NCBI RefSeq assembly: GCF_000025925.1
Contig: NC_014033.1
Location: 2,250,001 to 2,282,000 of the forward strand
Source: Xylanibacter ruminicola 23
GTDB lineage: Bacteria; Bacteroidota; Bacteroidia; Bacteroidales; Bacteroidaceae
Direction of reading: 5' to 3'
Length of the DNA stretch: 32,000 nucleotides
Below, one piece after another: positions 4,784-19,475 of this stretch. The notes under the pieces were generated by a model that saw nothing but the letters and a program-made list of their open reading frames with translations, was not told the origin of the DNA and did not search any database. The position numbers were made by a program, and so were the translations under genes. Each line of letters begins with the position of its first letter. Within the stretch, counting starts at the first letter, position 1.

Positions 4784-5084
4784 AGCAAAAAAATAATACG
4801 GTGCAAGTTTTTTAGGAAAATTACACCTTATTATATATAATATGGATGCATATGCATTTATTCATGCATATTATCTGCATAAAACCAATAGGCATAGTAA
4901 GAGTTTAAGCCGATAAAAACAGAAAATGAAAGCAAATATTGCGTTTAACTTTCAGATTGTAATTAAAAAGCATTTTTATACTTTTTGATTGACATAAATC
5001 AAGCCACCAAGAATAAAAATGCAAAATTTAGGGTCGAAGTGTGATTTTTTTATAATTTTATTTGTTTTTTAGACTTATATACCA

Positions 5085-5145: not shown

Positions 5146-8100
5146 ATGAAAAAAAGTCTAACAATGTTGATGGTCAGCCTTTTCCTGTTTGTAGGAACAG
5201 CGCTGGCACAGACTAAGATTACTGGTACGGTGCTCTCACAAGAGGACGGTCAGCCCATTATCGGTGCTGCCGTTAAAGTTGTTGGCACAAGTACTGGTAT
5301 GTTGACAGATGTAAACGGTAAGTTCTCACTGACACTGCCAGAGGGTAAGAAGTCACTGACGATTTCTTATCTTGGCTTTGAGAGCAAGACTGTAAACGCC
5401 AAGAACGGTATGCGCGTTTTCCTGAAGGCCGACGCACAGGTTGTTGACGAGGTTATCGTAGTAGCCTTCGGTCAGCAGAAGAAGTCAGCGTTCACAGGTT
5501 CAGCTGCAGTAGTAAACTCAGAAGACCTGAAGAAGCACACCGTATCTAACGTAACCAACGCACTTGCCGGTTCGGTAGCAGGTTTGCAGTTGCGTGGTGG
5601 TTCTGGTGCCCCTGGTGCCGGCAATGCCGAAATCAGCATCCGTGGTATCAGCTCGCTTTATAGCGAAACCACCCCACTTGTTATCGTTGATGGTGCACCT
5701 TATCCCGCATCACTGAGCAATATTCCTGCCGAGGATATCGAGTCGGTATCAGTTCTGAAGGATGCTGCCAGTGCAGCTCTGTATGGTGCCCGTGGTTCGA
5801 GTGGTGTAATCATCATCACCACCAAGAAGGGGCAGAAGGATCAGACCAAGATTAATGTAGATGTAAAATGGGGTGCTAACAGCCGCGCCGTTCAGGAGTA
5901 CGATAAGATTACCGATCCAGCTCAGTTCTACGAGGCTTACTACTCTCAGCTCTACAACTATGGCTACTATGGCCAGGGCATGAGCAACGCTGCCGCCAAC
6001 CAGTGGGCCAACAGCACCATGCTGAATCACCTGGGTTACAATATCTACACAGTGCCCGAGGGCCAGCAGCTCATCGGTCTTGATGGTAAGATTAACCCTT
6101 CAGCCACATTGGGCCGTAAGTACACCGACGAGAACACTGGTGAGACTTACTACATGACTAGCGACGATTGGGCCGATGCTGCTTACAAGACAGCCCTGCG
6201 CCAGGAGTACAACGTAAGCATCTCGTCTGGTAACGAGAAGGCTAGCTTCTACGCCAGTCTGGGTCACCTTGACGAGGATGGTATCATCGAGTACTCAAGC
6301 TACAAGCGTACCACAGCCCGTATCAAGGCCGACTATCAGGTTAAGCCTTGGATGAAGCTGGCTGCCAACGTTGGTTATGTACACTCTAAACAGTACAGTA
6401 ACCCTAACATGAGCACTGACTGGGGTTCTACTAACTTGATGTACTACACATCTTACATTGCACCTATCTATCCTATCTACGTACGCGTGATCGACCCAGC
6501 AACAGGTCAGCCAGTGATCCGTACCGACGAGAACGGCAATCCACACTACGACTATGGTGTGCCAGGTACTAACTATCATGGTGCCAGCCGTGGATTCCTG
6601 CAGACAGGTAACCCACTTGGTTCAAACCGCTACAACGAGACTTACAACATCGGCAACCAGCTGAATGGTAACTTCTCATTGGATATCAACATTCTGAAGA
6701 ACCTGAAGTTCAACGCCACCAGCACTATCATTCTGGGTCAGACCTCATACTCTTGGTACGACAACGCCCTTTACGGACCAAAGGTTGTAGCTAACGGTGA
6801 GTTGAAGAAGGAGCAGATCAACACCCTTCGCCAGAACCACGTTCAGACACTGACTTATGCTCAGGACTTCGGTCTGCATAGCGTTACATTGATGGCAGGT
6901 CACGAGTACTGGAATCAGACTTCACGCGACCTCACTGGTCTTGCTCAGGGTGGATTCAGCGCAGATATTAAGGAACTGAATGCTTTTGCCGGTAAGAACC
7001 AGGCACAGGTAACCAGCTACACCAACGAGTACAACGTTGAAGGTTACTTTGCTAACGCTCAGTACAGCTACGACGACAAGTACTTCGGAAGCGCTTCATT
7101 CCGTCGTGATGCTTCTTCACGCTTTGCCAAGGATAAACGTTGGGGTTCATTCTGGTCAGTAGGTGGTGCATGGATCATCTCTAAGGAGAAGTTTATGCAG
7201 AGCACTAAGGGCTGGTTGGATATGCTGAAGATTAAGGCCTCTATCGGACAGCAGGGTAATGATAACACTTCGAGCTTTGCTTATGTAGATACCTACTCAC
7301 TGACTCCTGCTTCATCTACTCAGATGTCGCCTTCATTCCGTCAGATTGGTAACCCCGACATCACATGGGAGACCCTGACCAACGCCAACATCGGTCTTGA
7401 GTTCGGTTTGTTCAAGAACCGCATCCAGGGTAGCATCGACTTCTACTACAAGAAGACTACCGACCTGCTGTTCTGGCTGTCAATTCCTGAGTCTGCAGGT
7501 ACACGTGGTTACTATGGTAACGTAGGTGACATCCGCAACCAGGGTATCGAGTTCAGCCTCACTGCCAATATCATCCGCAGCAAGCTGGTTGACTGGAGTG
7601 TATCAGCCAACATTTCTCACAACGCAACTAAGATTCTGAGTCTGCCTGATTCAAAGATTGGTGAGAACGGTGGTTTCTACGAGAGCAACTACTGGTACAC
7701 CGTAGGTGGCCCATTGAACAACTATATGAACTATGCTTATGCAGGTGTTAACGACAAGGGTGAGGCCCTGTACTACTACGATGAGGATCTGAGTCCTGCT
7801 GGTGGTAAGGTTTCAACCAACGTTATCAGCAAGCCTGGTACCAAGAAGAGCGGCACTACAACCCTGATTGGTGAGGCTTCGCGTTACACCGACAACGGCT
7901 CTACCCTGCCAAAGGCATTCGGTGGATTCAGCTCTAACCTGCGTGTAGGCGACTTCGATGCTTCGGTATCATTCGACTATCAGATTGGTGGTAAGGTTTA
8001 CGATTCAGGCTATGCTAAGCTGATGACTCCTGCCAGCTCTTCTTCTGATGCTGGTTACAACTACCACAAGGACATCCTGAAGGCATGGTCGCCCACCAAC

Positions 8101-8423: not shown

Positions 8424-10109
8424 ATGAAAAATAAGATATTATCAATCATAGCAGCTGGCGCACTGATGACAGGCGCAACAAGCTGTATCAAGGAGATTGA
8501 CCCACAGACAAGTTACGCCACAAAGGATCAGGTGGCTAACGCTCCAGGTGCTTTCGACAACGCCGTTAGCGCCATCACATCAACACTCGCCGGACAGTTT
8601 GTTTACGACAGTGGCGACACTCGTGCTAACGACTTCGGACTGCCTGCATTCTTCCTGATGCGCGACGTTTCTGGTCAGGACATTGCTTATCCATACATCA
8701 ACTGGTTTGGTGCTTGGTATGGTGCCGACCACCTGGGTCCAAGCTGGGCTAACTCACAGTACCCCTGGACTTACTACTTTAAGTGGATTAAGAGCTGTAA
8801 CGAGGTTATCTCGCTGGCTGGCGAGGAACCCGATGCCGATAAGAAGGCTGGCGCAGGTCGCGCTTACTTCTATCGCGCATACTTCTATCTCGATCTGGCC
8901 CGCATGTTCGCTCAGAAGCCTTATGGTGCTGACAAGAATTCGGAGACAGTTCCCATCGTGACAGAGAAGACAGCTGTTGCCGACCTGGCAAACAACCCAC
9001 GTGCCACTAACGAGGAGATGTATCAGTTCATCCTGAGCGACCTCGACAAGGCCGAGGAATATCTGGCTGGTTACAAACGCGAGAACAAGTATGTACCCGA
9101 TCAGAGCGTCGTTTACGGTATGAAGGCCCGTGTATATCTTGACATGCAGGATTGGGCAAATGCCGAGGCTTATGCCAAGAAGGCTCAGACAGGTTATACG
9201 CTGATGAGTGCCGACGAGTACACCGATCAGGAAACTGGTTTCAACACACCTAACGGTGCCTGGATGCTGGGACTTACCTATAAGAGCGACGATCCTAACA
9301 TCACTAAGAACGACGGTGACTCAAGCTGGGGTTCAATGATGTGTATCGAGATCGACCCTGTAGCTTCTGGTTGCGGTTACGCAGCTAACTACGGTCAGCC
9401 ATTCTGCATCGACTACCACTTGTATCAGACAATCCCTGCAACCGACTGCCGCAAGAAGTGCTACGTTGACTTTGCTATCGACGATATGGCCACTCGTGCC
9501 GAGAAGTTAGAGGCCCTCTCTGCTTACAGTGCACACCCCGATTGGCTGCTCGATGGTTCAGGTACAGCCGCTCATGGTAGAGGTTACATCTATACCGTTG
9601 GTGGTCTGCCTCTGAAGTTCCGTGTTGCCGGTGGCGAGGCTGGTCGTGCTAACCAGTACATCGGTTGGGTAGTAGCAGTACCTATGATGCGCGTAGAGGA
9701 GATGTACCTGATTGAAGCCGAGGCTGCTGGTATGCAGAACGAGGCTCGTGGTATCGAGTTGCTGACCAAGTTTGCTAAGACTCGCGACGCCAACTACGAG
9801 TATGGCACTCACAACGAGGCTTACTACAACACCTCTACCTCTAAGTTCCAGAACGAGTGCTGGTGGCAGCGTCGTGTTGAGTTCTGGGGCGAGGGCTTGG
9901 CTACATTCGACATCAAGCGCCTCCAGAAGGGTATCATCCGTAGCTATGCAGGTACAAACCACGCCGACCAGTACCAGTGGAACGTAGAGACCACTCCAGA
10001 ATGGATGAATCTGTGTATCGTACAGACAGAGACTAACTACAACAATGCTTGTACCAACAACCCAGAGCCAATTGCTCCATCAGGAAACTCTGCTCCATAC
10101 GCTTGGTAA
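8424..10109 (+). CDS. SusD/RagB-family outer-membrane lipoprotein (unit 1, 561 aa)
   Basis: It has a lipobox (LMTGATSC), sits 20 nt after susC, and has SusD-like TPR-type helices (RAYFYRAYFYLDLARMF, EEMYLIEAEA). Confidence 0.9.
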   Translation: MKNKILSIIAAGALMTGATSCIKEIDPQTSYATKDQVANAPGAFDNAVSAITSTLAGQFVYDSGDTRANDFGLPAFFLMRDVSGQDIAYPYINWFGAWYGADHLGPSWANSQYPWTYYFKWIKSCNEVISLAGEEPDADKKAGAGRAYFYRAYFYLDLARMFAQKPYGADKNSETVPIVTEKTAVADLANNPRATNEEMYQFILSDLDKAEEYLAGYKRENKYVPDQSVVYGMKARVYLDMQDWANAEAYAKKAQTGYTLMSADEYTDQETGFNTPNGAWMLGLTYKSDDPNITKNDGDSSWGSMMCIEIDPVASGCGYAANYGQPFCIDYHLYQTIPATDCRKKCYVDFAIDDMATRAEKLEALSAYSAHPDWLLDGSGTAAHGRGYIYTVGGLPLKFRVAGGEAGRANQYIGWVVAVPMMRVEEMYLIEAEAAGMQNEARGIELLTKFAKTRDANYEYGTHNEAYYNTSTSKFQNECWWQRRVEFWGEGLATFDIKRLQKGIIRSYAGTNHADQYQWNVETTPEWMNLCIVQTETNYNNACTNNPEPIAPSGNSAPYAW

Positions 10110-10132
10110 TTCATGTTATAACCACTTAAAAG

Positions 10133-10963
10133 ATGAACAAAATGAAAAAGTATTTATATAACATCATGTTCGCCTTCGTTGGAATACTTGCCCTCACGGC
10201 ATGTAAAGACGAGAGAGGAACAGAGCCCGGAACCGACAGCAATCCTGTTGTAACCATCTATCAGTATGATGCTCAGCTGCCTTTGAGCACCGACAACGAT
10301 TGCGTTGTACGCGTGGCAGCCAACAGTTCTGTTGAGTCGGCCTACTATCTGGCCGAGAAAGCCGACGACAAAGCCGCTCGCAATCTTGCACCCGATGCTT
10401 ATGCCGACTATGTAGTAAGCAATGGTACAAAGATCGACAACCTGTCGGCAGGTAACCCTGTAGATCTGACCCTTACCGGTATGATGGGCGACTACGTTAT
10501 CACCGTTGTAGGTGTTAAAGGTAGCACCAAGTACGCTACCGAGACATCGTTCAAGGGTCTCGACTGGCGCGATATCGCTACTGGTACCTACACCTTCGCT
10601 AAGCCAGCCGCTACTGGCCAGACAAGCACTACAGCCACACTGCAGTATTGCGCTAACGTAGATGGTTTGTACCGTATCAAGGACGTATTTGGCGCTGGCT
10701 ACTCACTGAAGTTCACCGGCACAGGTATGAAGGGTACCGACAAAACTGGTAATTACGAAGTAGTTCGCGTAGCAGCTCAGCCTATTGGTAAGACCTACGG
10801 CAACTACGGCGATGTAAGCGTTCGCGACCTTGCTACCTGGCAGAACACAGACGACTATCTCGACAACGCCATGTACGACGATGGCTATTGCTACTTCTGG
10901 GTACAGTACTTCGTATCTGCTGGTAGCCTTGGCTACGGTTACGATAAGTTTGTTCCTGAGTGA
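10133..10963 (+). CDS. Surface lipoprotein of unknown function (SusE/F-position accessory protein, 276 aa)
   Basis: It has a lipobox (ILALTACKDE), is the third gene of the unit, and has beta-rich composition. Confidence 0.7.
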   Translation: MNKMKKYLYNIMFAFVGILALTACKDERGTEPGTDSNPVVTIYQYDAQLPLSTDNDCVVRVAANSSVESAYYLAEKADDKAARNLAPDAYADYVVSNGTKIDNLSAGNPVDLTLTGMMGDYVITVVGVKGSTKYATETSFKGLDWRDIATGTYTFAKPAATGQTSTTATLQYCANVDGLYRIKDVFGAGYSLKFTGTGMKGTDKTGNYEVVRVAAQPIGKTYGNYGDVSVRDLATWQNTDDYLDNAMYDDGYCYFWVQYFVSAGSLGYGYDKFVPE

Positions 10964-11012
10964 TCTGCAGGACGTATGAAAGAGTAAGATCAATCTCTCT
11001 TTTTAATAATTG

Positions 11013-11060
11013 TCCCCCCGCAAAACCATGTGAATGGCCCGCGAGGGGATTTCTTTTTTT
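11013..11060 (+). terminator. Rho-independent terminator after unit 1
   Basis: The stem is TCCCCCCGC ... GCGAGGGGA, followed by TTTCTTTTTTT. Confidence 0.7.
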
Positions 11061-11064
11061 CTAA

Positions 11065-11087
11065 CTGTAGCACTGTAGCGGTGTAGC
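11065..11087. repeat. YGCTACAG octamer array (3 units, CTGTAGC orientation)
   Basis: The sequence is CTGTAGCACTGTAGCGGTGTAGC. It matches 22/23 to the reverse complement of 30066-30088. Related arrays lie at 13609-13630 and 13725-13746. Confidence 0.8.
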
Positions 11088-11183
11088 AAAAGTGTTGCGC
11101 ACAGACAACATAATTTTATAAAAAGTGTTGCGCGCAAGCAACATTTTTATCAAAAAGTGTTGGTTGTATGCAACATTTTTATT
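11088..11183 (+). promoter_or_regulatory. Three tandem 32-bp units, each carrying TGTTG-N8-CAACA (candidate operator array)
   Basis: The units are AAAAGTGTTGCGCACAGACAACATAATTTTAT, AAAAAGTGTTGCGCGCAAGCAACATTTTTATC and AAAAAGTGTTGGTTGTATGCAACATTTTTATT. They abut the -7 box of the ATPase gene. Confidence 0.6.
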
Positions 11184-11190
11184 ATCTTTG
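11183..11190 (+). promoter_or_regulatory. -7 promoter box TAtcTTTG for the AAA+ ATPase gene
   Basis: The context is ttattatctttgcc, 19 nt upstream of ATG 11209. Confidence 0.55.
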
Positions 11191-11208
11191 CCCCAAAAAT
11201 GATAGCTT

Positions 11209-12420
11209 ATGGATGCATTATTTAGAAAAAGCGACCGTTTACTGGCCAATACCAGCACAGAGATTGTACGCGAAATAGCAAATACAATCCATTGGAACGC
11301 CCAGCTAATTAGCATTATCGGTGCAAAAGGTGTGGGCAAGTCAACGCTCATTAAGCAGTATATCAAACAGAACTACGAACCTGGCGACAGGAGGGTTTTA
11401 TACTGCTCAGCTGATACTGTCGACTTTTCAACGCGCACACTGGTGGAACTAGCCGAAGAGTTTACCGTAAGAGGCGGCGAGCTGCTAGCCATCGACGAAA
11501 TCCACAAGTACAAATCGGGCAATACCGACTGGAGTCGTGAAATAAAGGAAATATACGAACTCTATCCCGACCTGAAGTTGATAGTAAGCGGATCATCACT
11601 ACTTAAACTAAAAGAAGGCGATGCTGACCTGTCACGACGAGCCGTAAAATATACACTGGCAGGATTGTCGTTTCGCGAAGCTTTACGTTTTTATCATGGA
11701 TTGGAGTTCGAAAAATGGACGTTAGACGACATTCTGAAGCACCCTTACGATTTATGGCAAACGGTGTCGACTAAGTGCAAGCCCAACGCACTGTTTAAGG
11801 AATATCTGAAAAAAGGCTACTACCCCTTTCTACTTGAAGGCGAGGGCGAGTATCACACAAAAATAGAGCAGGTGGTAAACTATATTATTGAAACAGAATT
11901 ACCCCAGATATGCAAGGTTGACGTGGCCAATGTAAGAAAACTGCAGGCACTTGTGGCGATGATATGCAGCGAGATACCTTTTGCACTAAATGCCAACCGA
12001 ATTGCCGCAGCCCTTGAAATTGGTCGCGACACGGTGGTGGAATACCTGAAATACCTGGGAGATGCCAAAGTATTAAATCTGCTTTACTCTGAAAAAAAGA
12101 AAATAGGCAAGCTCTCGAAACCCGATAAGGTATATCTCGAAAACCCCAATATCATGTATGCCCTAGCCCCTACCAAGGTTGAAATAGGAACACTACGCGA
12201 AACCTTTGCCGTGGGCAGTCTCACAGAGTCGCATAATGTTGAATACGGAAAAGCGCAAGGTGATTTTCTTGTTGACTCGAAGTACACATTCGAGATTGGC
12301 GGTCGCAGCAAGGATTTCTCGCAGATAGCAGGTATAAAGGATTCGTATATTTTTGCCGACGACTGGGATATGCCCGATGGTGCAAAACTCCCACTCTGGA
12401 TGCTAGGTTTCTTATATTAA
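11209..12420 (+). CDS. AAA+ ATPase of the COG1373 / AAA_14-DUF4143 type (403 aa)
   Basis: Walker A is GAKGVGKST and Walker B is LLAIDEIHK. The C-terminal region GDFLVDSKYTFEIGGRSK resembles the D...ExK nuclease-like tail of this family. Confidence 0.8.
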   Translation: MDALFRKSDRLLANTSTEIVREIANTIHWNAQLISIIGAKGVGKSTLIKQYIKQNYEPGDRRVLYCSADTVDFSTRTLVELAEEFTVRGGELLAIDEIHKYKSGNTDWSREIKEIYELYPDLKLIVSGSSLLKLKEGDADLSRRAVKYTLAGLSFREALRFYHGLEFEKWTLDDILKHPYDLWQTVSTKCKPNALFKEYLKKGYYPFLLEGEGEYHTKIEQVVNYIIETELPQICKVDVANVRKLQALVAMICSEIPFALNANRIAAALEIGRDTVVEYLKYLGDAKVLNLLYSEKKKIGKLSKPDKVYLENPNIMYALAPTKVEIGTLRETFAVGSLTESHNVEYGKAQGDFLVDSKYTFEIGGRSKDFSQIAGIKDSYIFADDWDMPDGAKLPLWMLGFLY

Positions 12421-12436
12421 TGATAATACAAAAAAA

Positions 12437-12470
12437 TCCCCTCGCTGATGATTCTGCGGGGGGATTCTTT
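12437..12470. terminator. Bidirectional terminator between the ATPase gene (+) and the small ORF (-)
   Basis: The stem is TCCCCTCGC ... GCGGGGGGA. An A-run lies on the left and a T-rich run on the right. On the minus strand the stem arms are identical to those of the 11013-11060 hairpin. Confidence 0.7.
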
Positions 12471-12471
12471 T

Positions 12472-12573
12472 CTACATGCCCATACAGCTGGTGGCGCCCA
12501 GGGCGGTTACTATCGCCGTTGCGATACTTGCAATCATCTGTACGATGAACTTCAGGGTTTCTTTCTTACTCAT
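12472..12573 (-). CDS. 33-aa small hydrophobic protein, 'smalltalk'-like peptide found next to Bacteroidales HU-like genes
   Basis: It is too short for the ORF track. The minus-strand ATG 12573 gives MSKKETLKFIVQMIASIATAIVTALGATSCMGM, ending at stop 12474-12472. The form is a charged N-terminus plus one helix ending in SC. It lies downstream of the HU-like gene and is followed by a strong terminator. The family name comes from memory of NCBI annotation. Confidence 0.6.
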   Translation of the reverse strand: MSKKETLKFIVQMIASIATAIVTALGATSCMGM

Positions 12574-12604
12574 AATGCTTTTAATAGTCAATGGTTAATA
12601 ATTT

Positions 12605-12698
12605 GGCACGGATTAACACGGCTTTATAAATAAAGACACGGCTTTTGTCGATGAAAAAAGAGCTGCGTTTCTCAAAAGAGAGCCGTGTAATCCGTGCC
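12605..12698. repeat. Palindromic 94-bp element, copy 1 (between the HU-like gene and the small ORF)
   Basis: The sequence is GGCACGGATTAACACGGCT...TCTCAAAAGAGAGCCGTGTAATCCGTGCC. The outer arms are inverted repeats. Copies 2 and 3 are at 15693-15787 and 16136-16229. Confidence 0.9.
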
Positions 12699-12703
12699 TA
12701 AAC

Positions 12704-13252
12704 TCAATCTCCGATTGGCTCGTGACTGCCGCCACCCTGGTTGCCGCCGGTGTTCTGACCGTTGCCACCGGTGTTACCGTTGTCGGTGGTGTTGCCGCTC
12801 TCAGGGTCCTCGATGTCGCTGCTGTCGCCACTGGTTACGCGCTTCAGTACGGTGCCGTCCTCGTCAAGGCAGGTAATCTGGATGCTGGTGTTCTTCAGCT
12901 CGTCCTTCACATCCACCGATGGGGTGAACACAATGCGACGGGTGGTAATCAGTCCGGTCTTCACGTCATCGAGCTTCTCAACGGCCTTGGCGCGCACGCC
13001 GAATCGCATGGTTCCCAGTCCGGGCACGGGTACCGAATGGCCCTCGGTGGCCCAGGTACGGATAACGGCGCCTGCTGCCTCCCATGCAGCCTTGATAACA
13101 CCTGCGCTAATGCCCGAGTGGGTGGCTGCCTCGGTAAACACCTTCTTCTCGGCGATGGCGCTGTACAGGTCGGGGCGCATCACGAAACGCTTGGCCCCAG
13201 GGTTCTTGCCGATCTTAAGCTCTCGGCGCTGTGCAATAACTTTGATACTCAT
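12704..13252 (-). CDS. Bacteroidales-type HU-like DNA-binding protein with G/N-rich acidic tail (182 aa)
   Basis: MSIKVIAQRRELKIGKNPGAKRFVMRPDLYSAIAEKKVF...VPVPGLGTMRF resembles the HU/IHF-fold 'putative DNA-binding protein' common in Bacteroides islands. The tail is NTTDNGNTGGNGQNTGGNQGGG. Confidence 0.75.
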   Translation of the reverse strand: MSIKVIAQRRELKIGKNPGAKRFVMRPDLYSAIAEKKVFTEAATHSGISAGVIKAAWEAAGAVIRTWATEGHSVPVPGLGTMRFGVRAKAVEKLDDVKTGLITTRRIVFTPSVDVKDELKNTSIQITCLDEDGTVLKRVTSGDSSDIEDPESGNTTDNGNTGGNGQNTGGNQGGGSHEPIGD

Positions 13253-13373
13253 AGGATAGTAAAATTAAAAAATTAAAAAATTAAAGAATTAAAAAATGTA
13301 ATAATTATAGGATTGTAAATAATTTTTAAATTTTATCATTTTTACATTTTTACATTGTTCTGAGTTCGGGTTC

Positions 13374-13493
13374 GGGCGGGGTATTAATCCTGCAGGGTGC
13401 TACGATTAAAGGTAACAATTGTTACTATTAATCTTCGCCGCTCGAGCTTCGCTCGCTTGGCTTGTCCAAGAAATCCGGGGATTAATATCGCCC
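13374..13493 (-). promoter_or_regulatory. Candidate structured 5' leader of the HU-like gene (closing stem plus three hairpins)
   Basis: GGGCGGGGTATTAATCC (13374-13390) pairs with GGATTAATATCGCCC (13479-13493). This stem encloses the GTAACAATTGTTAC palindrome (13412-13425), the CGAGC-TTC-GCTCG hairpin (13443-13455) and the CTTGG-cttgt-CCAAG hairpin (13456-13470). Confidence 0.4.
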
Positions 13494-13518
13494 TCAAGCC
13501 TCCCTCATTTTAACGTTA

Positions 13519-13526
13519 CAAAGGTA
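13519..13526 (-). promoter_or_regulatory. -7 promoter box (TAccTTTG on minus strand), implying a ~260-nt leader for the HU-like gene
   Basis: Plus strand caaaggta. I saw no other TAnnTTTG on the minus strand between here and ATG 13252. Confidence 0.4.
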
Positions 13527-13608
13527 CAACTTTTTCATTGCGGTTCACGAATAGCGAACCTACTTTTTTGCGAAAAATCACTGCGCGCGCCGCCACCATC
13601 CGCTGTCC

Positions 13609-13746
13609 GCTACGCGCTACAGCGCTACAGTTGTTTCCATCCCATCGCACACCATTATTTACTTCTATATTTATATATATAAATATAGGCACTACCGCTA
13701 CCACCCCCACCCCCGCAGTTCCAACTGTAGCACTGCAACGCGTAGC
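13609..13746. repeat. Symmetric element: inverted YGCTACAG arrays flanking a perfect 24-bp AT palindrome
   Basis: The left arm is GCTACGCGCTACAGCGCTACAG (13609-13630) and the right arm is CTGTAGCACTGCAACGCGTAGC (13725-13746). The palindrome CTATATTTATATATATAAATATAG (13665-13688) is centred within 2 bp of the midpoint between the arms. Confidence 0.8.
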
Positions 13747-13791
13747 ACACGTTTTTTTTCCAAAATATTTGGAAAATTGGAAATTAGTACG

Positions 13792-13799
13792 TATATTTG
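13792..13799 (+). promoter_or_regulatory. -7 promoter box TAtaTTTG for the MNT/HEPN operon
   Basis: The context is gtatatttgcacc, 22 nt upstream of ATG 13821. Confidence 0.55.
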
Positions 13800-13820
13800 C
13801 ACCATACAAAGCAATTAGTT

Positions 13821-14147
13821 ATGAACAATAGTAAAGTTATCGACAGTATTAAGCAGGTGGCCGAAAGGGTCTTACCCAAGGGTAGTCTGTTGTATCTCTA
13901 TGGGTCGCGTGCACGTGGAGACTGGCACGACGGTTCTGATTGGGATCTTCTGCTGATACTTGATAAGCCACGTCTTGAGCATGAGGATTTTAATAAGTAT
14001 TCCTATCCGTTTGTTGAAATGGGATGGGATATAGGCGAGGATATTCGTCCCCATGCATATACTAAGCAAGAGTGGTTTGATGGTCCACATGCTATGTTCT
14101 ATTATAATGTAGAAGAAGACAAACAAGTATTGTATGGAACTAAGTGA
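13821..14147 (+). CDS. Minimal nucleotidyltransferase (MNT-type, antitoxin-like) protein, 108 aa
   Basis: It carries the pol-beta NTase signature LYLYGSRARGDWHDGSDWDLLLIL. I moved the start to ATG 13821 because the TTG at 13797 lies inside the promoter box. Confidence 0.85.
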   Translation: MNNSKVIDSIKQVAERVLPKGSLLYLYGSRARGDWHDGSDWDLLLILDKPRLEHEDFNKYSYPFVEMGWDIGEDIRPHAYTKQEWFDGPHAMFYYNVEEDKQVLYGTK

Positions 14148-14541
14148 TAACGAGAGATCAACCATCGTACGCATGGAAATGGAGAAGGCACGCAAAACTT
14201 TTGCCGATATGGAATTTTGTGCCAAAGAGCAGAAATGGGAGGCTGCTGCCAATCGCCTGTACTATGCTTTGTTTCATGCGGTATCAGCCTTACTTATCAG
14301 TGGCGGTCAGAATGTAAAAAGTCATCGTGGCATCATGTCTCTTTTCGGACAGCATTATGTTCGTACAGGACTATTTACGAGCGAAGATGGTTCACTCCTC
14401 TCTGACCTTGTGATTATGCGCGATAACGCAGACTATAACCTATTCTTTGAGGCGAACGAGGAGAAAATCACTCCCTATATTGAGCCCACAAGACTGCTGA
14501 TTGATAAGATAGCAGAATTTGTTATTCCTAAAAACTCTTAA
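14134..14541 (+). CDS. HEPN-domain protein (135 aa), partner of the MNT gene
   Basis: It overlaps the MNT gene by 14 nt. NRLYYALFHAVSALLISGGQNVKSHRGIMSLF and VIMRDNADY are typical of MNT-associated HEPN proteins. Confidence 0.8.
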   Translation: MELSDNERSTIVRMEMEKARKTFADMEFCAKEQKWEAAANRLYYALFHAVSALLISGGQNVKSHRGIMSLFGQHYVRTGLFTSEDGSLLSDLVIMRDNADYNLFFEANEEKITPYIEPTRLLIDKIAEFVIPKNS

Positions 14542-14580
14542 TTATAACCTGCAGTTTTTGGTGGGTGCGAAGGTTTTTAT

Positions 14581-14588
14581 TATCTTTG
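14581..14588 (+). promoter_or_regulatory. -7 promoter box TAtcTTTG for the S24 peptidase gene
   Basis: The context is tttattatctttgcagcc. It lies inside the GTG-extended ORF, which argues for the downstream ATG 14667 as the true start. Confidence 0.5.
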
Positions 14589-14666
14589 CAGCCGTTTGGC
14601 GACCTGTGGAACGGCGCCGACTATGGATTATATTGTGAAATAAAACTTTTTAAAGAATTAATCGAC

Positions 14667-15479
14667 ATGAGAAATTTTAGTAGCATCGGTCAGTGGCCGA
14701 TGGAAATGGTGTGCGACACACCCGTGCCTTACTACGAAGTGGGAGTTAGTTGTGGACTGCCTGGCGAAATGGGGGAGCTGCCACCCGAGATGGTGCTGCT
14801 GCCCAGCATGCTGACGCGTGGCCGGCAAGTGTTTATCGTGGATGCCGATGGCGACTCGATGACCGGCGTGGGCATTTACAGTGGTGATGCGCTGCTGATA
14901 GAGAGTACACAGCGGGTGCACTGCGGCGAAGTGGTGATGGTGAGCATCGACGGCGAGGAGCTGTTGAAGGTGTATTACGTTGACGACACGGGGCGCCACT
15001 GGCTGTTGGCCGCCAACCCGAAGTACCAGCCACGCGAACTAACGGCCGACATGAATGTACGCATCTGCGGGCGCATGGTGTGCAACCTGAGTGCGCCGCA
15101 CGTATCGGTAAAGCACTGTGGCGAAGTGGTACGCCAGTTTAAAGCCAAGCAGAAGCAGCACCAGCCCGACATGTATGAGCGCCTGACCGAAGCCGTTATC
15201 CAGTGCAGTCATCTGTTTTGGGCAGCATCGGCCTGGGCAGTGGTTTTCGGTGTACTGCGCGATAAATACAGTTATGACAAGCCAGTTGCCGAGTTTGAGC
15301 GTATGGCCCAGGCCTTAAAGCTACCTGCTACGTTTAGGTTTGTATGTGGCGAAGGCAGTGTGCAGCGCACCATCAGTAATCATGAGTACATGCGAAAGAG
15401 TATCGACAAGTGGGAGGAGCAAGGTGCTGCCGACCGCGAACTGAAGCTGATGACGGTTTTAATTAAAGAATTGGCTTAG
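14667..15479 (+). CDS. S24 (UmuD/LexA-type) self-cleaving peptidase domain fused to a ~130-aa C-terminal domain of unknown function (270 aa)
   Basis: It has GDSM (Ser nucleophile), a Lys in EELLKVYY, and a Cys29-Gly30 candidate cleavage site (VGVSCGLPGE) like UmuD Cys24-Gly25. There is no N-terminal HTH. The C-terminal part QCSHLFWAASAWAVVFGVLRDKYSYDKPVAEFERMAQ... is unrecognised. Confidence 0.75.
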   Translation: MRNFSSIGQWPMEMVCDTPVPYYEVGVSCGLPGEMGELPPEMVLLPSMLTRGRQVFIVDADGDSMTGVGIYSGDALLIESTQRVHCGEVVMVSIDGEELLKVYYVDDTGRHWLLAANPKYQPRELTADMNVRICGRMVCNLSAPHVSVKHCGEVVRQFKAKQKQHQPDMYERLTEAVIQCSHLFWAASAWAVVFGVLRDKYSYDKPVAEFERMAQALKLPATFRFVCGEGSVQRTISNHEYMRKSIDKWEEQGAADRELKLMTVLIKELA

Positions 15480-15481
15480 TT

Positions 15482-15565
15482 TTACCGAACCTGTTACCGA
15501 ACTTCGGTAAGTATTAGTACCAAAGTTACCGAAACCTACAACACTTACCGAAAACTGTTACCGAA
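15482..15565. promoter_or_regulatory. Array of six TTACCGAA sites (one inverted, forming a 17-bp perfect palindrome)
   Basis: TTACCGAA occurs at 15482, 15494, 15526, 15545 and 15558, and TTCGGTAA at 15503. Positions 15494-15510 read TTACCGAACTTCGGTAA. The array starts 2 nt after the S24 stop codon. Confidence 0.7.
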
Positions 15566-15598
15566 TGCGTTCCAAGAAATTGGAGCGCATTATTTTTT
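15565..15598 (+). terminator. Rho-independent terminator after the S24 gene and site array
   Basis: The stem is ATGCGTTCCAA-gaaa-TTGGAGCGCAT (one G-T pair), followed by TATTTTTT. Confidence 0.65.
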
Positions 15599-15602
15599 GC
15601 CA

Positions 15603-15610
15603 TACTTTTG
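15603..15610 (+). promoter_or_regulatory. -7 promoter box TActTTTG for the antirepressor gene
   Basis: The context is gccatacttttgcagcg. It implies a ~210-nt leader that contains palindromic element copy 2. Confidence 0.45.
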
Positions 15611-15692
15611 CAGCGTGATTCAGTTCACGAGTGTTCTTTGACTTACTGCCACACCAACCCGACTCGGAATCGGCCGAGCGGATTTATTCTTA

Positions 15693-15787
15693 GGCACGGA
15701 TTTACACGGCTTTATAAATAAAGACACAGCTGTTATCAATGAAAAGAAAGCAGCGTTTCTCTAAAAGAGAGCCGTGTCATCCGTGCC
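15693..15787. repeat. Palindromic 95-bp element, copy 2 (5' leader of the antirepressor gene)
   Basis: The sequence is GGCACGGATTTACACGGCTTTATAAATAAAGACACAGCT...TCTCTAAAAGAGAGCCGTGTCATCCGTGCC. The left flank GAGCGGATTTATTCTTA resembles the left flank of copy 3. Confidence 0.9.
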
Positions 15788-15826
15788 CCCAAAAATATTA
15801 TTAACAATTTAAATACACACACAATT

Positions 15827-16591
15827 ATGGAAACAATGATTATTAAAACAGTAAACGAGAACCAACACATGATGACTTCGCTGGAAATAGCTGAAGTAAC
15901 CGGTAAGCAGCACTGTCACGTAATGGAGGCCATCCGAAAAATGGAACCCGCGTGGCAGAAAGTTAATCAATCAAATTTTCGATTGATTGAATATACCGAC
16001 AGTCGAGGTCGACTGATGCCCTGCTACCAGCTAACCAAGACCGAGACGCTCTACATCGCCACCAAGTTTAACGACGAGGCCCGCGCCCGACTCGTTCTGC
16101 GTTGGGAAGAACTGGAACGCGAGCGGATTATTTTTGGCACGGATGACACGGCCTTTTTAAAAAAGGACACGGCTTATATCGATGAAGAAAGCAGCGTCTC
16201 TCTAAAAGAGAGCCGTGTTAATCCGTGCCTAAGAAAACTTCCATCGTTGGGCGTTCAGAAACAGATACTGGCGATGGCGGATGAGATTGTGGGTACGGGA
16301 CTGCGCATGCTGAACGAGCCTGCCGAGGATACACTCACCGCCACGCAGGTGGCCAAGACGTTTAACATGAACACCCGCGACTTTAATGCCGTGCTGGCCG
16401 ACATGAACATTCAGTACCGCGCCCACGGCCGATGGCACCTGGCCGAACACCTGCTGGGTAGGGGCTACACCGCCGAACGTACACACATCGACTACTCGCT
16501 GAAAGGCAAGCGCAAAATCAAAGTGTACATGACGTGGACCATGGCCGGACTGAAGTACCTTAACTCGCAATTGGGATACCCTAACCTTTAG
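15827..16591 (+). CDS. Rha-family N-terminal domain fused to a KilAC/ANT-like antirepressor C-terminal domain (254 aa)
   Basis: MTSLEIAEVTGKQHCHVMEAIRKM...YQLTKTETLYIATKFNDEARARLVLRWEELE is Rha-like. The C-terminal TATQVAKTFNMNTRDFNAVLADMNIQY...GLKYL is KilAC-like. The linker is encoded by repeat copy 3. Confidence 0.75.
   Translation: METMIIKTVNENQHMMTSLEIAEVTGKQHCHVMEAIRKMEPAWQKVNQSNFRLIEYTDSRGRLMPCYQLTKTETLYIATKFNDEARARLVLRWEELERERIIFGTDDTAFLKKDTAYIDEESSVSLKESRVNPCLRKLPSLGVQKQILAMADEIVGTGLRMLNEPAEDTLTATQVAKTFNMNTRDFNAVLADMNIQYRAHGRWHLAEHLLGRGYTAERTHIDYSLKGKRKIKVYMTWTMAGLKYLNSQLGYPNL
16136..16229. repeat. Palindromic 94-bp element, copy 3, in frame inside the antirepressor CDS (residues 104-134)
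   Basis: GGCACGGATGACACGGCC...TCTCTAAAAGAGAGCCGTGTTAATCCGTGCC translates as GTDDTAFLKKDTAYIDEESSVSLKESRVNPC with no stop. Confidence 0.9.
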
Positions 16592-16592
16592 G

Positions 16593-16627
16593 ACATTAAA
16601 CATTAAAGATTAAACATTAAACATTAA
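16593..16627. repeat. Heptamer array (ACATTAA/AGATTAA x5)
   Basis: It starts 2 nt after the antirepressor stop. The 7-nt period places TAA in all three frames. Confidence 0.9.
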
Positions 16628-16628
16628 A

Positions 16629-16709
16629 GGCCTCGATTAAGCGAGAGCAGAGCCAAGCTTGCTTGAGCTTTGCCGAGTGTGAGAGGGCTCGATACGAAGT
16701 ATCAACATT
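16629..16709 (+). repeat. 81-bp repeat, copy A, ending 5 nt before the lysozyme ATG
   Basis: GGCCTCGATTAAGCGAGAGCAGAGCCAAGCTTGCTTGAGCTTTGCCGAGTGTGAGAGGGCTCGATACGAAGTATCAACATT matches 19491-19571 at 80/81 positions. The single difference is 16678 T versus 19540 C. Confidence 0.95.
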
Positions 16710-16714
16710 TTACT

Positions 16715-17179
16715 ATGCAGATTACAGACACACTTTTACAGAAATTGATGGAGATGGAGGGATGCCGACTAAGCGCTTATCGCGACGAGGGCGGCGTGCC
16801 TACCATCGGCTACGGACACACACGCGGTGTGCGCATGGGCGACCGCATCAGCCCCCAGCAGGCTCGCGACTGGCTGCTACAGGATGCCACCGAGGTGATG
16901 CGACAGGTGCGACGCCTGCACGTGGCACGCACCGAGGCGCAACTAGAGGCACTCACATCGTTTGCCTTTAACGTGGGCATCGGACGGCTGAAGCAGTCAA
17001 CCCTGCTCAAAACCATCCGCCAAGGCGGCAGCAAGGCTGCCATCCAGCGCCAGTTTAAACGATGGGTGTATGCCGGCGGTAGCAAGTTGCCCGGTTTGGT
17101 AGCCCGTCGCCAATGGGAGGCCGAACACTTCTTCGCCCCCAGCTACCCAACGGATGACGAAATCATCGACCGGGTGTGA
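16715..17179 (+). CDS. GH24 phage-type lysozyme (endolysin-like, 154 aa)
   Basis: The T4/lambda-type lysozyme signature is LMEMEGCRLSAYRDEGGVPTIGYGHTRGV, followed by ALTSFAFNVG. I moved the start to ATG 16715 because the track ORF starts at a TTG inside the 81-bp repeat. Confidence 0.85.
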   Translation: MQITDTLLQKLMEMEGCRLSAYRDEGGVPTIGYGHTRGVRMGDRISPQQARDWLLQDATEVMRQVRRLHVARTEAQLEALTSFAFNVGIGRLKQSTLLKTIRQGGSKAAIQRQFKRWVYAGGSKLPGLVARRQWEAEHFFAPSYPTDDEIIDRV

Positions 17180-17207
17180 ACATTAAACATTAAAGATTAA
17201 ACATTAA
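17180..17207. repeat. Heptamer array (ACATTAA/AGATTAA x4)
   Basis: It lies immediately after the lysozyme TGA and runs up to the primase-helicase start. Confidence 0.9.
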
Positions 17208-17216
17208 AGATTGGCT

Positions 17217-19475
17217 ATGAGCACACACATTATTTATTTAAAGGACGGGGTGAAAATGATGCGCCCCGTAACCACCCGCGCAGAGTATATGGCCCTGCGC
17301 GGCAGTAACGAACAGCAGCAACTGATGGCCGCCATACGCAGCGGCAACGAGACGTTGAAGCACCGGCTGGTGCAGATGAACTACAGTTGTCTGCCCAATG
17401 CCGACGGCACACTGCGCGGCAGCACCCGTATGAGCAATACCGTGGGTATGGATATCGACCACCTATCGGCCGAAGAGATGCCCGCCGTTCGCGAGCGCAT
17501 CCTGGACAAGAAGGATGAGCTGGGACTAGGGATGCTTGAGGAGAGTGCCCGCGGCTGTGGCTACCACCTGGTGTTTACCCGACGGCCGCACATGTCGCAG
17601 GTAGAGAACCTGCAGTGGGCCGCCCAGCTGCTAGGCGTGGACTACGATGCCCAGGCCAAGGACATCACCCGCGTGTTCTTCACCACCGGCACCGAGCAGC
17701 TTATCTATCTGGATGATGCCATCTTTGAACTCCCGTCCTCGGAAAGTTGTGACAAGGGACAGGGCCCAGTCACATTCTGTGACAGGTACCAGTCCCCAGT
17801 CACAAAGACTGATTCCGTTGACAATTTTCAAGAAGGAAAAATCCTAAAGTCCTGTATTCCGTTGCAAAAAGATTACAACGGCATGGCTTTCTCGGATATT
17901 ATCGCAAAGTATTGGGAGCTGTTTAACGGTGGCAAGCTGCCGGTGGTGGGCGATAGGAACGCACTCACCTTCGAGTTGGCCGTTACCCTGCGCTCTATCT
18001 GCGGCTACAGTCTGGAGGGCCTGCAGGCCATCGTACCCAACTACTGGGCTGCACCCGATGGCACCTGCACCGATGCCGACCGCACCGAATATCTGCACAC
18101 ACTGGAAAACGCCCTGAAAGAGCCCCGCCGCGGCATGCCCCTGCGCCTGAAACAGGTATTGCAGGCACTCAAGGAGCAGCAAGGTGTAAAGGCCTGCGGG
18201 GGTACCGTAAGCACGCCTCCACCCATGCCCAAGCGGTTGCCGCCATTGATAAAACTGCTAACCCGCAACGTGCCGTGGTACTACAAGCCCGCTGTGGCCA
18301 GTGCCGTGTTTCCTGCCCTGGGCGCCCATCTGCATGGCGTACACTTCCGCTATTGGGACAACGTGGATCACGAGGCCACGTTTATGAACCTGCTGGTGGG
18401 CCGACAGAGCGTGGGTAAGGGCTCGATCAAAAAGCCCATCGAGTATATCATGGAGGACATACGCCAGCACGACCTGCTCAGTCGCCAGCGCGAGGCCGAG
18501 TGGAAGCAGAAGAACCCCACTGGCAAGCAGAAGAAGGACCCGCGCCCCGCCGACATCTGCATTCAGATGCTGATAGACAACCTGACCGACGCCGTGTTTA
18601 ACCAGCGCGTGGTGGATGCCAACAACAACGGAGAGCGCTACATCTACACCATTGTAGACGAGGTAGAGGCTCTGAAGAAGGTGACATCGAGCCATAAGGC
18701 CGACGAGGTGGGACTGCTGATACGAAAGGCTTTCGACAACTCGATGGCAGGTCAGGAGCGTGTGGGTGCCGACAGCGTATCGGGCATAGCACCGCTGCGC
18801 TGGAACTTCAACGCCAGCACCACCCCACCCAACGCGCGCAAGTTCTTTTATAAGATGGTGAACGATGGCACGGTGAGCCGACTGGATGTGGCCACCATCA
18901 TCCGTCCCATCGAAGACGACGACGAGGCACCCATCCTGGGCATCTACGACGACCGTTTTGCCGCCGAGCTCAAACCCTATATCGACCGTCTGGATGCTGC
19001 CAACGGACTGATAGAGTGCCCGCAAGCCCGCAAGCTGGCACTTGACCTGAAGCAGGAGAATGCCGACACCGCCCGCTTGTACGAGAGCGAGGCCTACCGT
19101 GTGCTGTCGTATCGTGCCAACGTGATAGCCTGGCTTAAGGGTATGGTGCTGTATGTGGCCCATGGCTACCGGTGGGACAAGCAGATAGCTGAGTTTGTGC
19201 GCTGGAGCGAGCAGTATAACCTATGGTGCAAGATGCTGTACTTTGGAACCCAGCTTGAGAAGGAGCTGAACGACGAGCAGGAACTGCAGCGCCACTCGGG
19301 TCCCCAGAACCTGCTGGAGCTGCTACCCGATGAGTTTACCCGCGAGCAGTATCTGCAGATGCGCCAGCAAGCCGGCCGCCCCGGTCCCGGCGACAGCACC
19401 CTGCGCACCTGGCAAACCCGCGGCCACATAGCTTTTGATGAAACGGCAGGCCGTTTCCTCAAGATTAAACATTAA
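17217..19475 (+). CDS. VirE_N (BT4734-like) domain plus DUF3987-like P-loop region: putative primase-helicase (752 aa)
   Basis: The N-terminal region (MNYSCLPNADGTLRGSTRMSNTVGMDIDH...GYHLVFTR...ITRVFFTTG) resembles the VirE N-domain family of Bacteroides. It has a P-loop-like VGRQSVGKGS and a Walker B-like YIYTIVDEVEAL. I prefer ATG 17217 over TTG 17211. The stop codon lies inside a heptamer array. Confidence 0.7.
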   Translation: MSTHIIYLKDGVKMMRPVTTRAEYMALRGSNEQQQLMAAIRSGNETLKHRLVQMNYSCLPNADGTLRGSTRMSNTVGMDIDHLSAEEMPAVRERILDKKDELGLGMLEESARGCGYHLVFTRRPHMSQVENLQWAAQLLGVDYDAQAKDITRVFFTTGTEQLIYLDDAIFELPSSESCDKGQGPVTFCDRYQSPVTKTDSVDNFQEGKILKSCIPLQKDYNGMAFSDIIAKYWELFNGGKLPVVGDRNALTFELAVTLRSICGYSLEGLQAIVPNYWAAPDGTCTDADRTEYLHTLENALKEPRRGMPLRLKQVLQALKEQQGVKACGGTVSTPPPMPKRLPPLIKLLTRNVPWYYKPAVASAVFPALGAHLHGVHFRYWDNVDHEATFMNLLVGRQSVGKGSIKKPIEYIMEDIRQHDLLSRQREAEWKQKNPTGKQKKDPRPADICIQMLIDNLTDAVFNQRVVDANNNGERYIYTIVDEVEALKKVTSSHKADEVGLLIRKAFDNSMAGQERVGADSVSGIAPLRWNFNASTTPPNARKFFYKMVNDGTVSRLDVATIIRPIEDDDEAPILGIYDDRFAAELKPYIDRLDAANGLIECPQARKLALDLKQENADTARLYESEAYRVLSYRANVIAWLKGMVLYVAHGYRWDKQIAEFVRWSEQYNLWCKMLYFGTQLEKELNDEQELQRHSGPQNLLELLPDEFTREQYLQMRQQAGRPGPGDSTLRTWQTRGHIAFDETAGRFLKIKH

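Follow-up and report, generated by a model that had tools for sequence, protein, structure and literature searches.

A palindromic element of 94 to 95 nucleotides (nt) is present in three copies, c1 to c3, in the DNA analyzed here, a 32,000-nt stretch of Xylanibacter ruminicola 23 (contig NC_014033.1, positions 2,250,001 to 2,282,000) that we refer to as the window. The copies have identical orientation and are associated with genes for an HU-HIG DNA-binding protein, a small DUF6486 protein, and Rha-ANT, in which Pfam finds a Rha-family regulator joined to a KilAC/ANT antirepressor domain (Table 1). The DUF6486 small open reading frame (ORF) belongs to a real family and bears the same annotation in a relative (L168; L numbers denote collected loci and P numbers Rha-ANT homologues). 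A preliminary description of this DNA had placed c1 at a distance of 5 nt from the stop codon of the HU-HIG gene and of 31 nt from the start of the 33-amino-acid (aa) ORF, and both distances are right; it had also assigned c2 to the leader of the antirepressor gene, and c2 does end 39 nt before the ATG at 15827. The third copy falls beyond the end coordinate of that description, 15787, and its in-frame location in the Rha-ANT ORF was missing there. Translated, c3 reads (F)GTDDTAFLKKDTAYIDEESSVSLKESRVNPC(L) and adds 31 aa to the Rha-ANT linker, after the Phage_pRha domain (aa 16-98) and before the ANT domain (aa 166-249). Upstream of c2 are a terminator-like hairpin (15564-15591) and then a Bacteroidetes-type TAnnTTTG motif, TACTTTTG, at 15603-15610, which we take to be a putative promoter.

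Table 1. Element copies, arms, and associated genes in the window
Feature	Position	Strand	Description
Copy 1 (c1)	12605-12698	+	94 nt; between the HU-HIG stop codon and the start of the DUF6486 small ORF (both genes on the - strand)
c1 left arm	12605-12643	+	three direct boxes, GCACGGAT, ACACGGCT, ACACGGCT; small palindrome CTTTATAAATAAAG between boxes 2 and 3
c1 right arm	12657-12698	+	inverted counterpart of the left arm, with a CTC-AAAA-GAG hairpin
Copy 2 (c2)	15693-15787	+	95 nt; in the Rha-ANT leader
Copy 3 (c3)	16136-16229	+	94 nt; in frame within the Rha-ANT ORF
DUF6486 small ORF, 33 aa	12472-12573	-	PF20096, 4e-12; ATG at 12571-12573, 31 nt from the c1 start
HU-HIG DNA-binding protein gene	12704-13252	-	Pfam PF18291, 1.1e-13; TGA stop at 12704-12706, with the c1 end 5 nt away
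Rha-ANT gene, 254 aa	15827-16591	+	PF09669, 4.8e-22; PF03374, 5.2e-12; hosts c3
Possible fourth element	17740-17818	+	palindrome of ~80 nt, in frame in a 754-aa BT4734-like ORF; boxes TGTGACA/GGGACAG/CAGTCACA

Copies c2 and c3 have the same layout as c1. From the left, each copy has box 1 (GCACGGAT), box 2 (ACACGGC), the small palindrome CTTTATAAATAAAG, and box 3 (ACACGGC), followed by a variable center and by a right arm in which an inverted box of degenerate sequence (AGCAGCGT) precedes another small palindrome (CTCTAAAAGAG) and inverted boxes 2 and then 1. The arms can be written as GGCACGGAT(N1-2)ACACGGC plus the inverse, and the terminal inverted repeats measure 18 to 19 nt in all copies, or ~40 nt if all three boxes are counted. 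Consistent with the preliminary description, the shared inverted arms, the third ACACGGC box, and an inner CTCT-AAAA-AGAG hairpin are all read in the three copies. The arm pattern GGCACGGATNNACACGGC has three matches in the window versus 0.22 expected by chance, and three or more matches were obtained in none of 100 shuffles. RNA folding of each copy, on either strand, gave -38 to -47 kcal/mol (z = -6.5 to -8.4).

The window copies belong to a dispersed, sequence-conserved family whose presence varies between genomes and which is homologous to the ends of a gene-bearing cassette described below. A scan of one genome per species with the arm pattern returned at least 120 matches. Among the 120 listed, 27 came from Prevotella, Xylanibacter, Segatella, or Prevotellaceae, mostly from rumen metagenome-assembled genomes (MAGs) and often from several contigs per MAG; the other listed genome matches were single ones, as chance would give for a pattern with 16 specified bases. 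A stricter 20-base pattern found at least 120 further loci in metagenomes, and a profile built from the three window copies recovered full-length members in the matched Prevotellaceae loci. Pairing of arms over the ~2.3 Mb of collected loci yielded 133 elements with a length mode of 90 to 99 nt (69 elements) and a range from a bare 34-nt arm-arm palindrome to 565 nt, with the exception of one 2,426-nt arm pair (L279); 96 of the 133 are distinct short copies. Overall, members were located at roughly 100 different sites, in rumen metagenomes and in many genomes of Prevotella, Xylanibacter, Segatella, and other Prevotellaceae. The boxes are of the CACGG(A/C)T type, three per arm with a spacing of ~9 to 10 bp; in window-type copies, the right arm has two clear boxes and a degenerate third one. 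A phage-borne family was considered and rejected, 46 single-arm matches in viral contigs having contained just one or two real elements (L130, perhaps L144).

Of the possibilities raised in the preliminary description, a genome-wide transposable element of the miniature inverted-repeat kind (MITE) is the one supported, given the dispersed copies and the presence/absence differences at orthologous sites. The family has terminal inverted repeats, is small (<500 bp), carries no transposase ORF, exists in many dispersed copies, and shows insertion polymorphism between related genomes. The family is not confined to the island genes named in the preliminary description, as copies also lie between housekeeping genes such as rmlD, prfC, and Sua5. 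A search of the published literature, which did not extend to the supplement of one MITE census covering Bacteroidota, found no paper with the arm sequence. Few repeat families of the MITE, ERIC, or Correia kind have been characterized in this phylum, and the three copies add one that annotators of Prevotella and rumen genomes should know, since ORFs are split or lengthened by it and assemblies broken. Taken simply as repeats, the elements are of an ordinary kind, and the unexpected value lies in their link to the cassette.

Comparison with relatives showed which copies vary. All three are in place in a near-identical relative (L167, 96% Rha-ANT identity), and c1 is at the same place in L185 too. 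The L309 locus (92% identity) lacks c1 and c2, with a GC-rich hairpin, TGGGGCTTGCGCCCCA, after the HU stop at the c1 site; its c2 site, like that of L307, is empty and reads CTTA-GACA-AAAAAAATATT. Copy c3 is absent from L168 and L307 (about 75 to 78% identity), and L168 is likewise without c1 and has retained, at the c2 site, a stub of 15 nt, TTAGGCACGGCCTAA; the c1 comparison excludes L307, whose locus does not reach that site. Among other Rha-ANT homologues, eight of those listed have no linker insert (P0075, P0082, P0089, P0097, P0103, P0111, P0118, and P0120), some have the window-type insert, and others carry variant inserts (P0015, P0023, and P0037) or short stubs (P0056 and P0098). Empty, stub, and hybrid linker alleles were also seen at the DNA level.

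The gene-bearing relative of the short elements is a cassette containing a GxxExxY gene. In L103, family arms 463 nt apart bracket a 134-aa GxxExxY ORF (TIGR04256, 1.2e-38, 132 bits versus a cut-off of 35), and elements of ~460 bp with an intact, arm-bracketed GxxExxY gene were also found in L184/L255, L194, L234, L212, and L289-L300. All twelve loci collected via two exact GxxExxY proteins have this same arrangement; the window itself contains no GxxExxY gene. The start codon lies a few bases past box 3 and the stop codon in or just before the right arm, leaving no room for a promoter, and the gene is always co-oriented with its neighbors in the order DUF4924-rmlD-GxxExxY-prfC-Sua5. At the DUF4924/rmlD, prfC/Sua5, and Sua5/CLC stop/start junctions, occupancy by the element differs among strains with an identical GxxExxY protein. 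The short copies are colinear with the first 44 and last 58 nt of the cassette, and the alignment takes in the gene's 3' end, for which the cassette translation ..MDEKKAVSLE* can be set against IDEESSVSLKE in c3; in c1, this GxxExxY 3'-end remnant is antisense relative to the HU-HIG and DUF6486 genes. An internally deleted GxxExxY gene at the same site in L214 represents an intermediate form, and elements of 218 to 376 nt have 106 nt of the L212-type cassette's 3' region in common with it, representing a second deletion lineage. Together, the colinear ends, the L214 intermediate, and the L212-type match argue that internal deletion of GxxExxY cassettes, in at least two lineages, gave rise to the short elements. 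The preliminary description made no mention of this link, no paper connecting GxxExxY or PF13366 to repeats was found in the literature, and the link is new as far as the literature could be checked.

The boxes follow the gene that they enclose. At the rmlD-prfC site, the arms consist, depending on the Prevotella lineage, of spaced boxes, three contiguous CACGGAT boxes, or three CACGAAT boxes, and a box change is mirrored in all three boxes of the opposite arm (L218 and L214 have CACGAAT three times on both sides). A 44%-identical GxxExxY paralogue (L252) is flanked by TATGGAT boxes. The contiguous three-box arms listed are each uniform for the GGAT or GAAT variant, and CACGAAT-type miniatures exist too; only the L309 hybrid discussed below joins a GGAT left arm to a GAAT right arm. 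Beyond this lineage, the following GxxExxY genes on replicons of other taxa all sit between same-strand neighbors. Inverted arrays flank the genes of B. finegoldii (CACAGAGGA three times, of the CACAGAG(GA) type; between radA and the gene for an FAD-dependent protein), Bernardetia (CACAGAG; ade and mannose-1-phosphate guanylyltransferase), and Sphingomonas (CGCGAAG; fabD and fabG), and the Treponema gene, next to genes for a hypothetical protein and Fic, has one inverted ACACGGATTCG box. Direct repeats accompany the genes of a Fusobacteria bacterium (neighbors encoding an ATP-binding protein and a metal-dependent hydrolase) and of P. nigrescens (neighbors encoding hypothetical proteins).

The GxxExxY proteins (PF13366/TIGR04256) make up a large family that spans phyla and whose function is listed as unknown (PMC3424549). 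The catalytic residues E...PD...ELK (E27, D66, and E76-x-K78) are invariant in 26 sequences, and the AlphaFold2 (AF2) model (pLDDT 85.8) matches PD-(D/E)XK folds such as Cas4 SSO0001, lambda-exonuclease-like proteins, and Hjc. A sequence search against the PDB gave no match for GxxExxY, and the fold search gave generic PD-(D/E)XK matches only.

Placement of the short copies differed from that expected by spacer type. In the 96 distinct short copies, 40 lie in co-directional, 35 in convergent, and 1 in divergent spacers, with 5 inside long ORFs and 15 at locus edges; spacer types in the same loci predict about 50 co-directional, 13 convergent, and 12 divergent (p = 5e-11). The family is therefore enriched just after stop codons and nearly missing from divergent promoter spacers. 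That much agrees with the earlier view that the elements are placed at transcript boundaries, a view that does not extend to one window copy and to the 5 of 96 copies overall that lie inside coding sequence. In operon spacers, the element mostly fills the gap, leaving 5 to 20 nt per side, and its orientation is mixed with a weak bias (18 sense, 10 antisense). The left flank reads TT(A/T) and the right flank (T/A)AA, in the combinations TTA..AAA (29), TTT..TAA (21), and TTA..TAA (19), with TTT..AAA in none of the 96, so that a T-run lies 5' and an A-run 3' of the hairpin whichever its orientation. Occupied junctions gain an A-rich tail ahead of the next ATG.

The five copies that are in frame in ORFs lie in inter-domain linkers, those of Rha-ANT, BT4734-like (L195, L272), and GH97-like (L254) proteins. 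The ~80-nt palindrome within the window's own BT4734-like ORF (Table 1) folds at -37 and -41 kcal/mol (z of about -4.7 and -4.9) and was found elsewhere only as an orthologous copy in L167. At the orthologous BT4734-like linker site, relatives have a CACGAAT-type element (L168 and L307), a hybrid (L309), or a CACGGAT-type element (L272); from its position and architecture, the window palindrome may belong to the same superfamily with different boxes. L309 has two 79-nt hybrids (4810-4888 and 6359-6437 of that locus) that are 94% identical to each other and lie in two different genes, each with three CACGGAT boxes in the left arm and three inverted CACGAAT boxes in the right. This hairpin is held only via G-U pairs on the sense strand (-35.9 versus -25.3 kcal/mol). 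The presence of two near-identical hybrids in different genes argues for copying between sites, by transposition or conversion. The linker insertions of Rha-ANT and BT4734-like proteins would be natural examples of selfish DNA producing protein length variation. Some elements contain a 31-nt module, TCTTGGACGAGCCAAGCGGCAAAGCCGAGCG, with two mini-hairpins between box 1 and box 2 (L296 and L299, at about 720-790 and 1290-1340), and this same element variant is also seen in translation, as GTDSWTSQAAKPSDTD, in some Rha-ANT alleles (P0023 and P0098).

In our reading the family is MITE-like and derives from GxxExxY cassettes by deletion, and we think it probable that the window copies are members, old and fixed, of a family of gene-less miniature palindromes in Prevotellaceae that arose by internal deletion from the ~460-bp cassettes. 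An updated view of these elements would have as the parent a promoter-less cassette in which the same arms bracket the gene for GxxExxY, a small PD-(D/E)XK nuclease-fold protein. Internal deletion would have produced gene-less elements, typically of 90 to 100 bp, that spread into transcribed spacers near stop codons and at times, in frame, into inter-domain linkers. The window copies would then be passengers with side effects, c1 giving the HU-DUF6486 spacer and c2 the Rha-ANT leader a hairpin of -38 to -47 kcal/mol and c3 lengthening a linker by 31 aa. For the means of spread, our preferred guess is that the GxxExxY nuclease recognizes the box arrays or their cruciform and disperses the miniatures in trans, together with host repair. 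A broader proposal, that GxxExxY cassettes are an unrecognized class of selfish elements whose nuclease mobilizes both itself and the gene-less miniatures, possibly into hairpin or palindromic sites such as terminators, is conceivable but doubtful. If true, it would give this widespread family a function, and the combination of promoter-less genes in housekeeping operons, lineage-specific inverted boxes, and dispersed miniatures makes a testable hypothesis for GxxExxY nucleases.

Several observations weigh against this explanation in whole or in part. No target-site duplication was found in flank statistics, in a joined-flank BLAST for empty sites, or in four orthologous comparison sets. The flanks, AT-rich and of the TTA/TAA type, have no consistent direct repeat, and comparing empty with occupied alleles at the sites of c1, c2, and c3 as well as at three operon junctions brought out no duplication. 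At the cleanest empty sites, moreover, spacer sequence was replaced, not simply interrupted. Old copies can lose duplications, so the missing duplication weakens the MITE case without excluding it. The full-length cassette seems immobile, every look-up of the two exact proteins having given DUF4924-rmlD-GxxExxY-prfC-Sua5; for the rmlD-prfC lineage, mobility of the full-length cassette was rejected on account of this strict synteny. Two of eight distant GxxExxY genes (L301 and L305) have direct, not inverted, flanking repeats, and we know of no precedent for a lone PD-(D/E)XK nuclease acting as a transposase. Uniformity of the arms could come from gene conversion instead of recognition by a protein, and the copies may have been spread by another enzyme or homogenized by gene conversion.

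Whether the copies are instead kept as RNA is a reasonable question, as their hairpins are very stable on either strand, enrichment after stop codons and in operon spacers with near-absence from divergent spacers is what cis-acting structured RNAs would display, c1 occupies the spot where L309 and L168 carry a GC-rich hairpin after the HU gene, the L309 GGAT/ATTC hybrid folds better on the sense strand, and Correia elements are RNase III substrates (PMC10969869). Such RNAs would terminate or attenuate transcription, block exonucleases, or provide RNase III sites between cistrons. The covariance analysis, however, gave no support to the structured-RNA idea: in 28 window-type copies, the arms were nearly invariant, the RNAalifold covariation term was -0.01, and a double change occurred in 1 of 25 pairs. 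Nor was there a strand bias in stability, with -43.2 kcal/mol in sense and -42.7 kcal/mol in antisense for 45 copies of known transcription direction (Wilcoxon p = 0.61). The suggested terminator or attenuator role also fared poorly, since a T-run before and an A-run after the hairpin is the reverse of the intrinsic-terminator layout, and a terminator scan flagged none of the three window copies. The statement that the element is not a named RNA family was borne out by an Rfam search of 10000-19000, which returned nothing relevant at E <= 1. Invariant arms, the lack of covariation and strand bias, mixed orientation in operon spacers, intragenic copies, and close relatives that live without the copies together indicate repeated DNA conserved as sequence and not an RNA kept for its fold, and we regard the structured-RNA explanation as quite unlikely. 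RNA effects, such as those of a stable hairpin in a leader or spacer and possible RNase III cleavage as in Correia, are plausible; they are likely side effects and leave the existence of the family unexplained.

Among explanations at the DNA level, a conventional MITE of a transposase-encoding insertion sequence (IS), with the GxxExxY gene as cargo captured between the ends or flanked by two insertions, would account for the terminal inverted repeats, small size, absence of an ORF, AT-rich sites, high copy number, and local clustering, all of which are MITE features (PMC10969869), as well as for the existence of mosaic elements combining different arm types. It is nevertheless unlikely: about 2.3 Mb of loci contained no transposase gene between or beside the arms, ordinary genes fill the one arm pair spaced by more than 600 nt (L279, 2,426 nt), and target-site duplication was not seen. 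Distant GxxExxY genes, furthermore, carry their own matching boxes tight against the start and stop codons, which is unexpected for accidental capture. An autonomous IS with the same ends was rejected on similar grounds, as the longer relatives carry the GxxExxY gene in place of a transposase. Alternatively, the box arrays may be binding sites for a host DNA-binding protein, a nucleoid protein or regulator, kept to organize or regulate neighboring genes. The boxes are indeed sequence conserved and spaced 9 to 10 bp apart, about one helical turn, with three per arm, and the copies cluster in one conserved gene cluster encoding HU-like and S24/LexA-like proteins. This idea is very improbable given that site occupancy varies between close relatives, that copies lie inside ORFs and between unrelated housekeeping genes, and that the box sequence follows the enclosed GxxExxY lineage and not the neighboring genes.

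Read as deletion derivatives of GxxExxY cassettes, the elements resemble several known repeat systems, with Correia, ERIC, and Rickettsia palindromic elements (RPEs) being closest in form. The Correia/NEMIS elements of Neisseria, a MITE, are ~100 to 150 bp in length, dispersed, strain variable, and co-transcribed, with long terminal inverted repeats, long hairpins, and internal size variants (PMC10969869). The present family shares the long terminal repeats, the many dispersed copies, the presence variation, the co-transcription with neighboring genes, the long hairpins, and the size variants. It differs in that a TA target is duplicated by Correia elements, which contain promoters as well as an IHF site and have no known parent, whereas here no duplication was found, the arms have three boxes, promoter regions are avoided, and a gene-bearing parent is visible. 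ERIC/IRU elements of enterobacteria are imperfect palindromes of ~127 bp in transcribed intergenic regions, with size variants arising by internal deletion or insertion and occasional intragenic copies. Our family is likewise palindromic, located in transcribed spacers, variable in size, and sometimes intragenic, but it differs from ERIC in host phylum and sequence, and we know of no box-array arms or associated gene for ERIC. RPEs are similar as palindromic repeats tolerated in frame in genes, where they add a peptide segment; they are often intragenic, however, while the present family is mostly intergenic beside stop codons, with its intragenic copies in inter-domain linkers.

The closest parallel in logic is the REP/RAYT system, in which short palindromes at gene 3' ends are linked to a single-copy, vertically inherited gene flanked by inverted repeats. 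As with GxxExxY and its boxes, a vertically inherited gene is flanked by repeats that it is thought to disperse. REPs have a GTAG head and a length of 20 to 40 nt, and the RAYT proteins belong to the HUH Y1 transposases, whereas the unit here is a three-box arm in an element of ~94 nt, with a gene for a PD-(D/E)XK fold protein between the arms. Membership in REP/BIME was rejected accordingly, with a unit of about 94 nt, arms starting with GGCACGG, no HUH/RAYT gene seen, and GxxExxY as the flanked gene. Integron cassettes are also promoter-less ORFs reliant on upstream transcription and bounded by imperfect palindromic recombination sites, but they have one attC, form arrays next to intI, and depend on a tyrosine recombinase, while GxxExxY has arms on both sides and scattered operon sites. 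An integron cassette/attC identity (a single 3' attC, an intI array, GTTRRRY cores) was rejected for these arms on both sides, for the location in ordinary operons (rmlD-prfC, fabD-fabG, radA, and others), and for the absence of an integrase at the loci.

The surrounding gene cluster contains other repeats and variable segments. Directly upstream of the HU-HIG start codon lies an A-tract repeat with an 8-nt period (AATTAAAAAATTAAAAAATTAAAG..., 13255-13310). Boxes of CTGTAGC/GCTACAG are arrayed at 11059-11087, 13609-13633/13722-13746, and about 30066; among them, upstream of the HU gene, is an inverted pair of 25 nt whose members are 88 nt apart. These arrays are syntenic around the HU-DUF6486 unit in L167, L168, and L309 and thus look like a set of regulatory or structural sites and not a dispersed repeat. 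Three hairpin units of ~32 nt (AAAAAGTGTTGCGCGCAAGCAACATTTTTAT) stand in tandem at 11087-11182, just upstream of an AAA_14/DUF4143 ATPase gene, and are also present in L167, L185, and L309. The ATPase gene (11209-12420; compared region, 11176-12356) is nearly all deleted in L309 (560-620), where TTTTTATTATCTTTGC runs straight into CGACGACTGGG close to the gene's 3' end; the 16-mer TTTTTATTATCTTTGC also occurs at 14574-14589 of the window. Between the HU gene and the S24 peptidase gene (13797-14541), the window has a nucleotidyltransferase and a HEPN gene, and relatives have AbiEii (L167, 3276-4719; L309, 2045-3413) or a PIN-domain pair (L168, 4034-4701). This slot holds a toxin-antitoxin-like module that differs by relative, a variable islet within the conserved cluster.

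Heptamer arrays of (A/G)ATTAAAC / ATTAAAG are arranged in tandem at 16579-16639 and 17180-17226, directly on either side of a lysozyme gene, and the two share a 33-nt stretch that is 97% identical. Similar arrays are found in other spacers of the cluster (L167, L307, and L309) and in unrelated loci; a role as intercistronic leaders is possible. The GTTACCGAA repeats that form a run at 15480-15570 lie downstream of the S24/LexA-like gene but still upstream of the region with the Rha-ANT promoter. In L167, L168, L307, and L309 (L168, 5700-5790), GTTTCTG-type repeats take their place, and the two repeat sets look like lineage-specific operator arrays.

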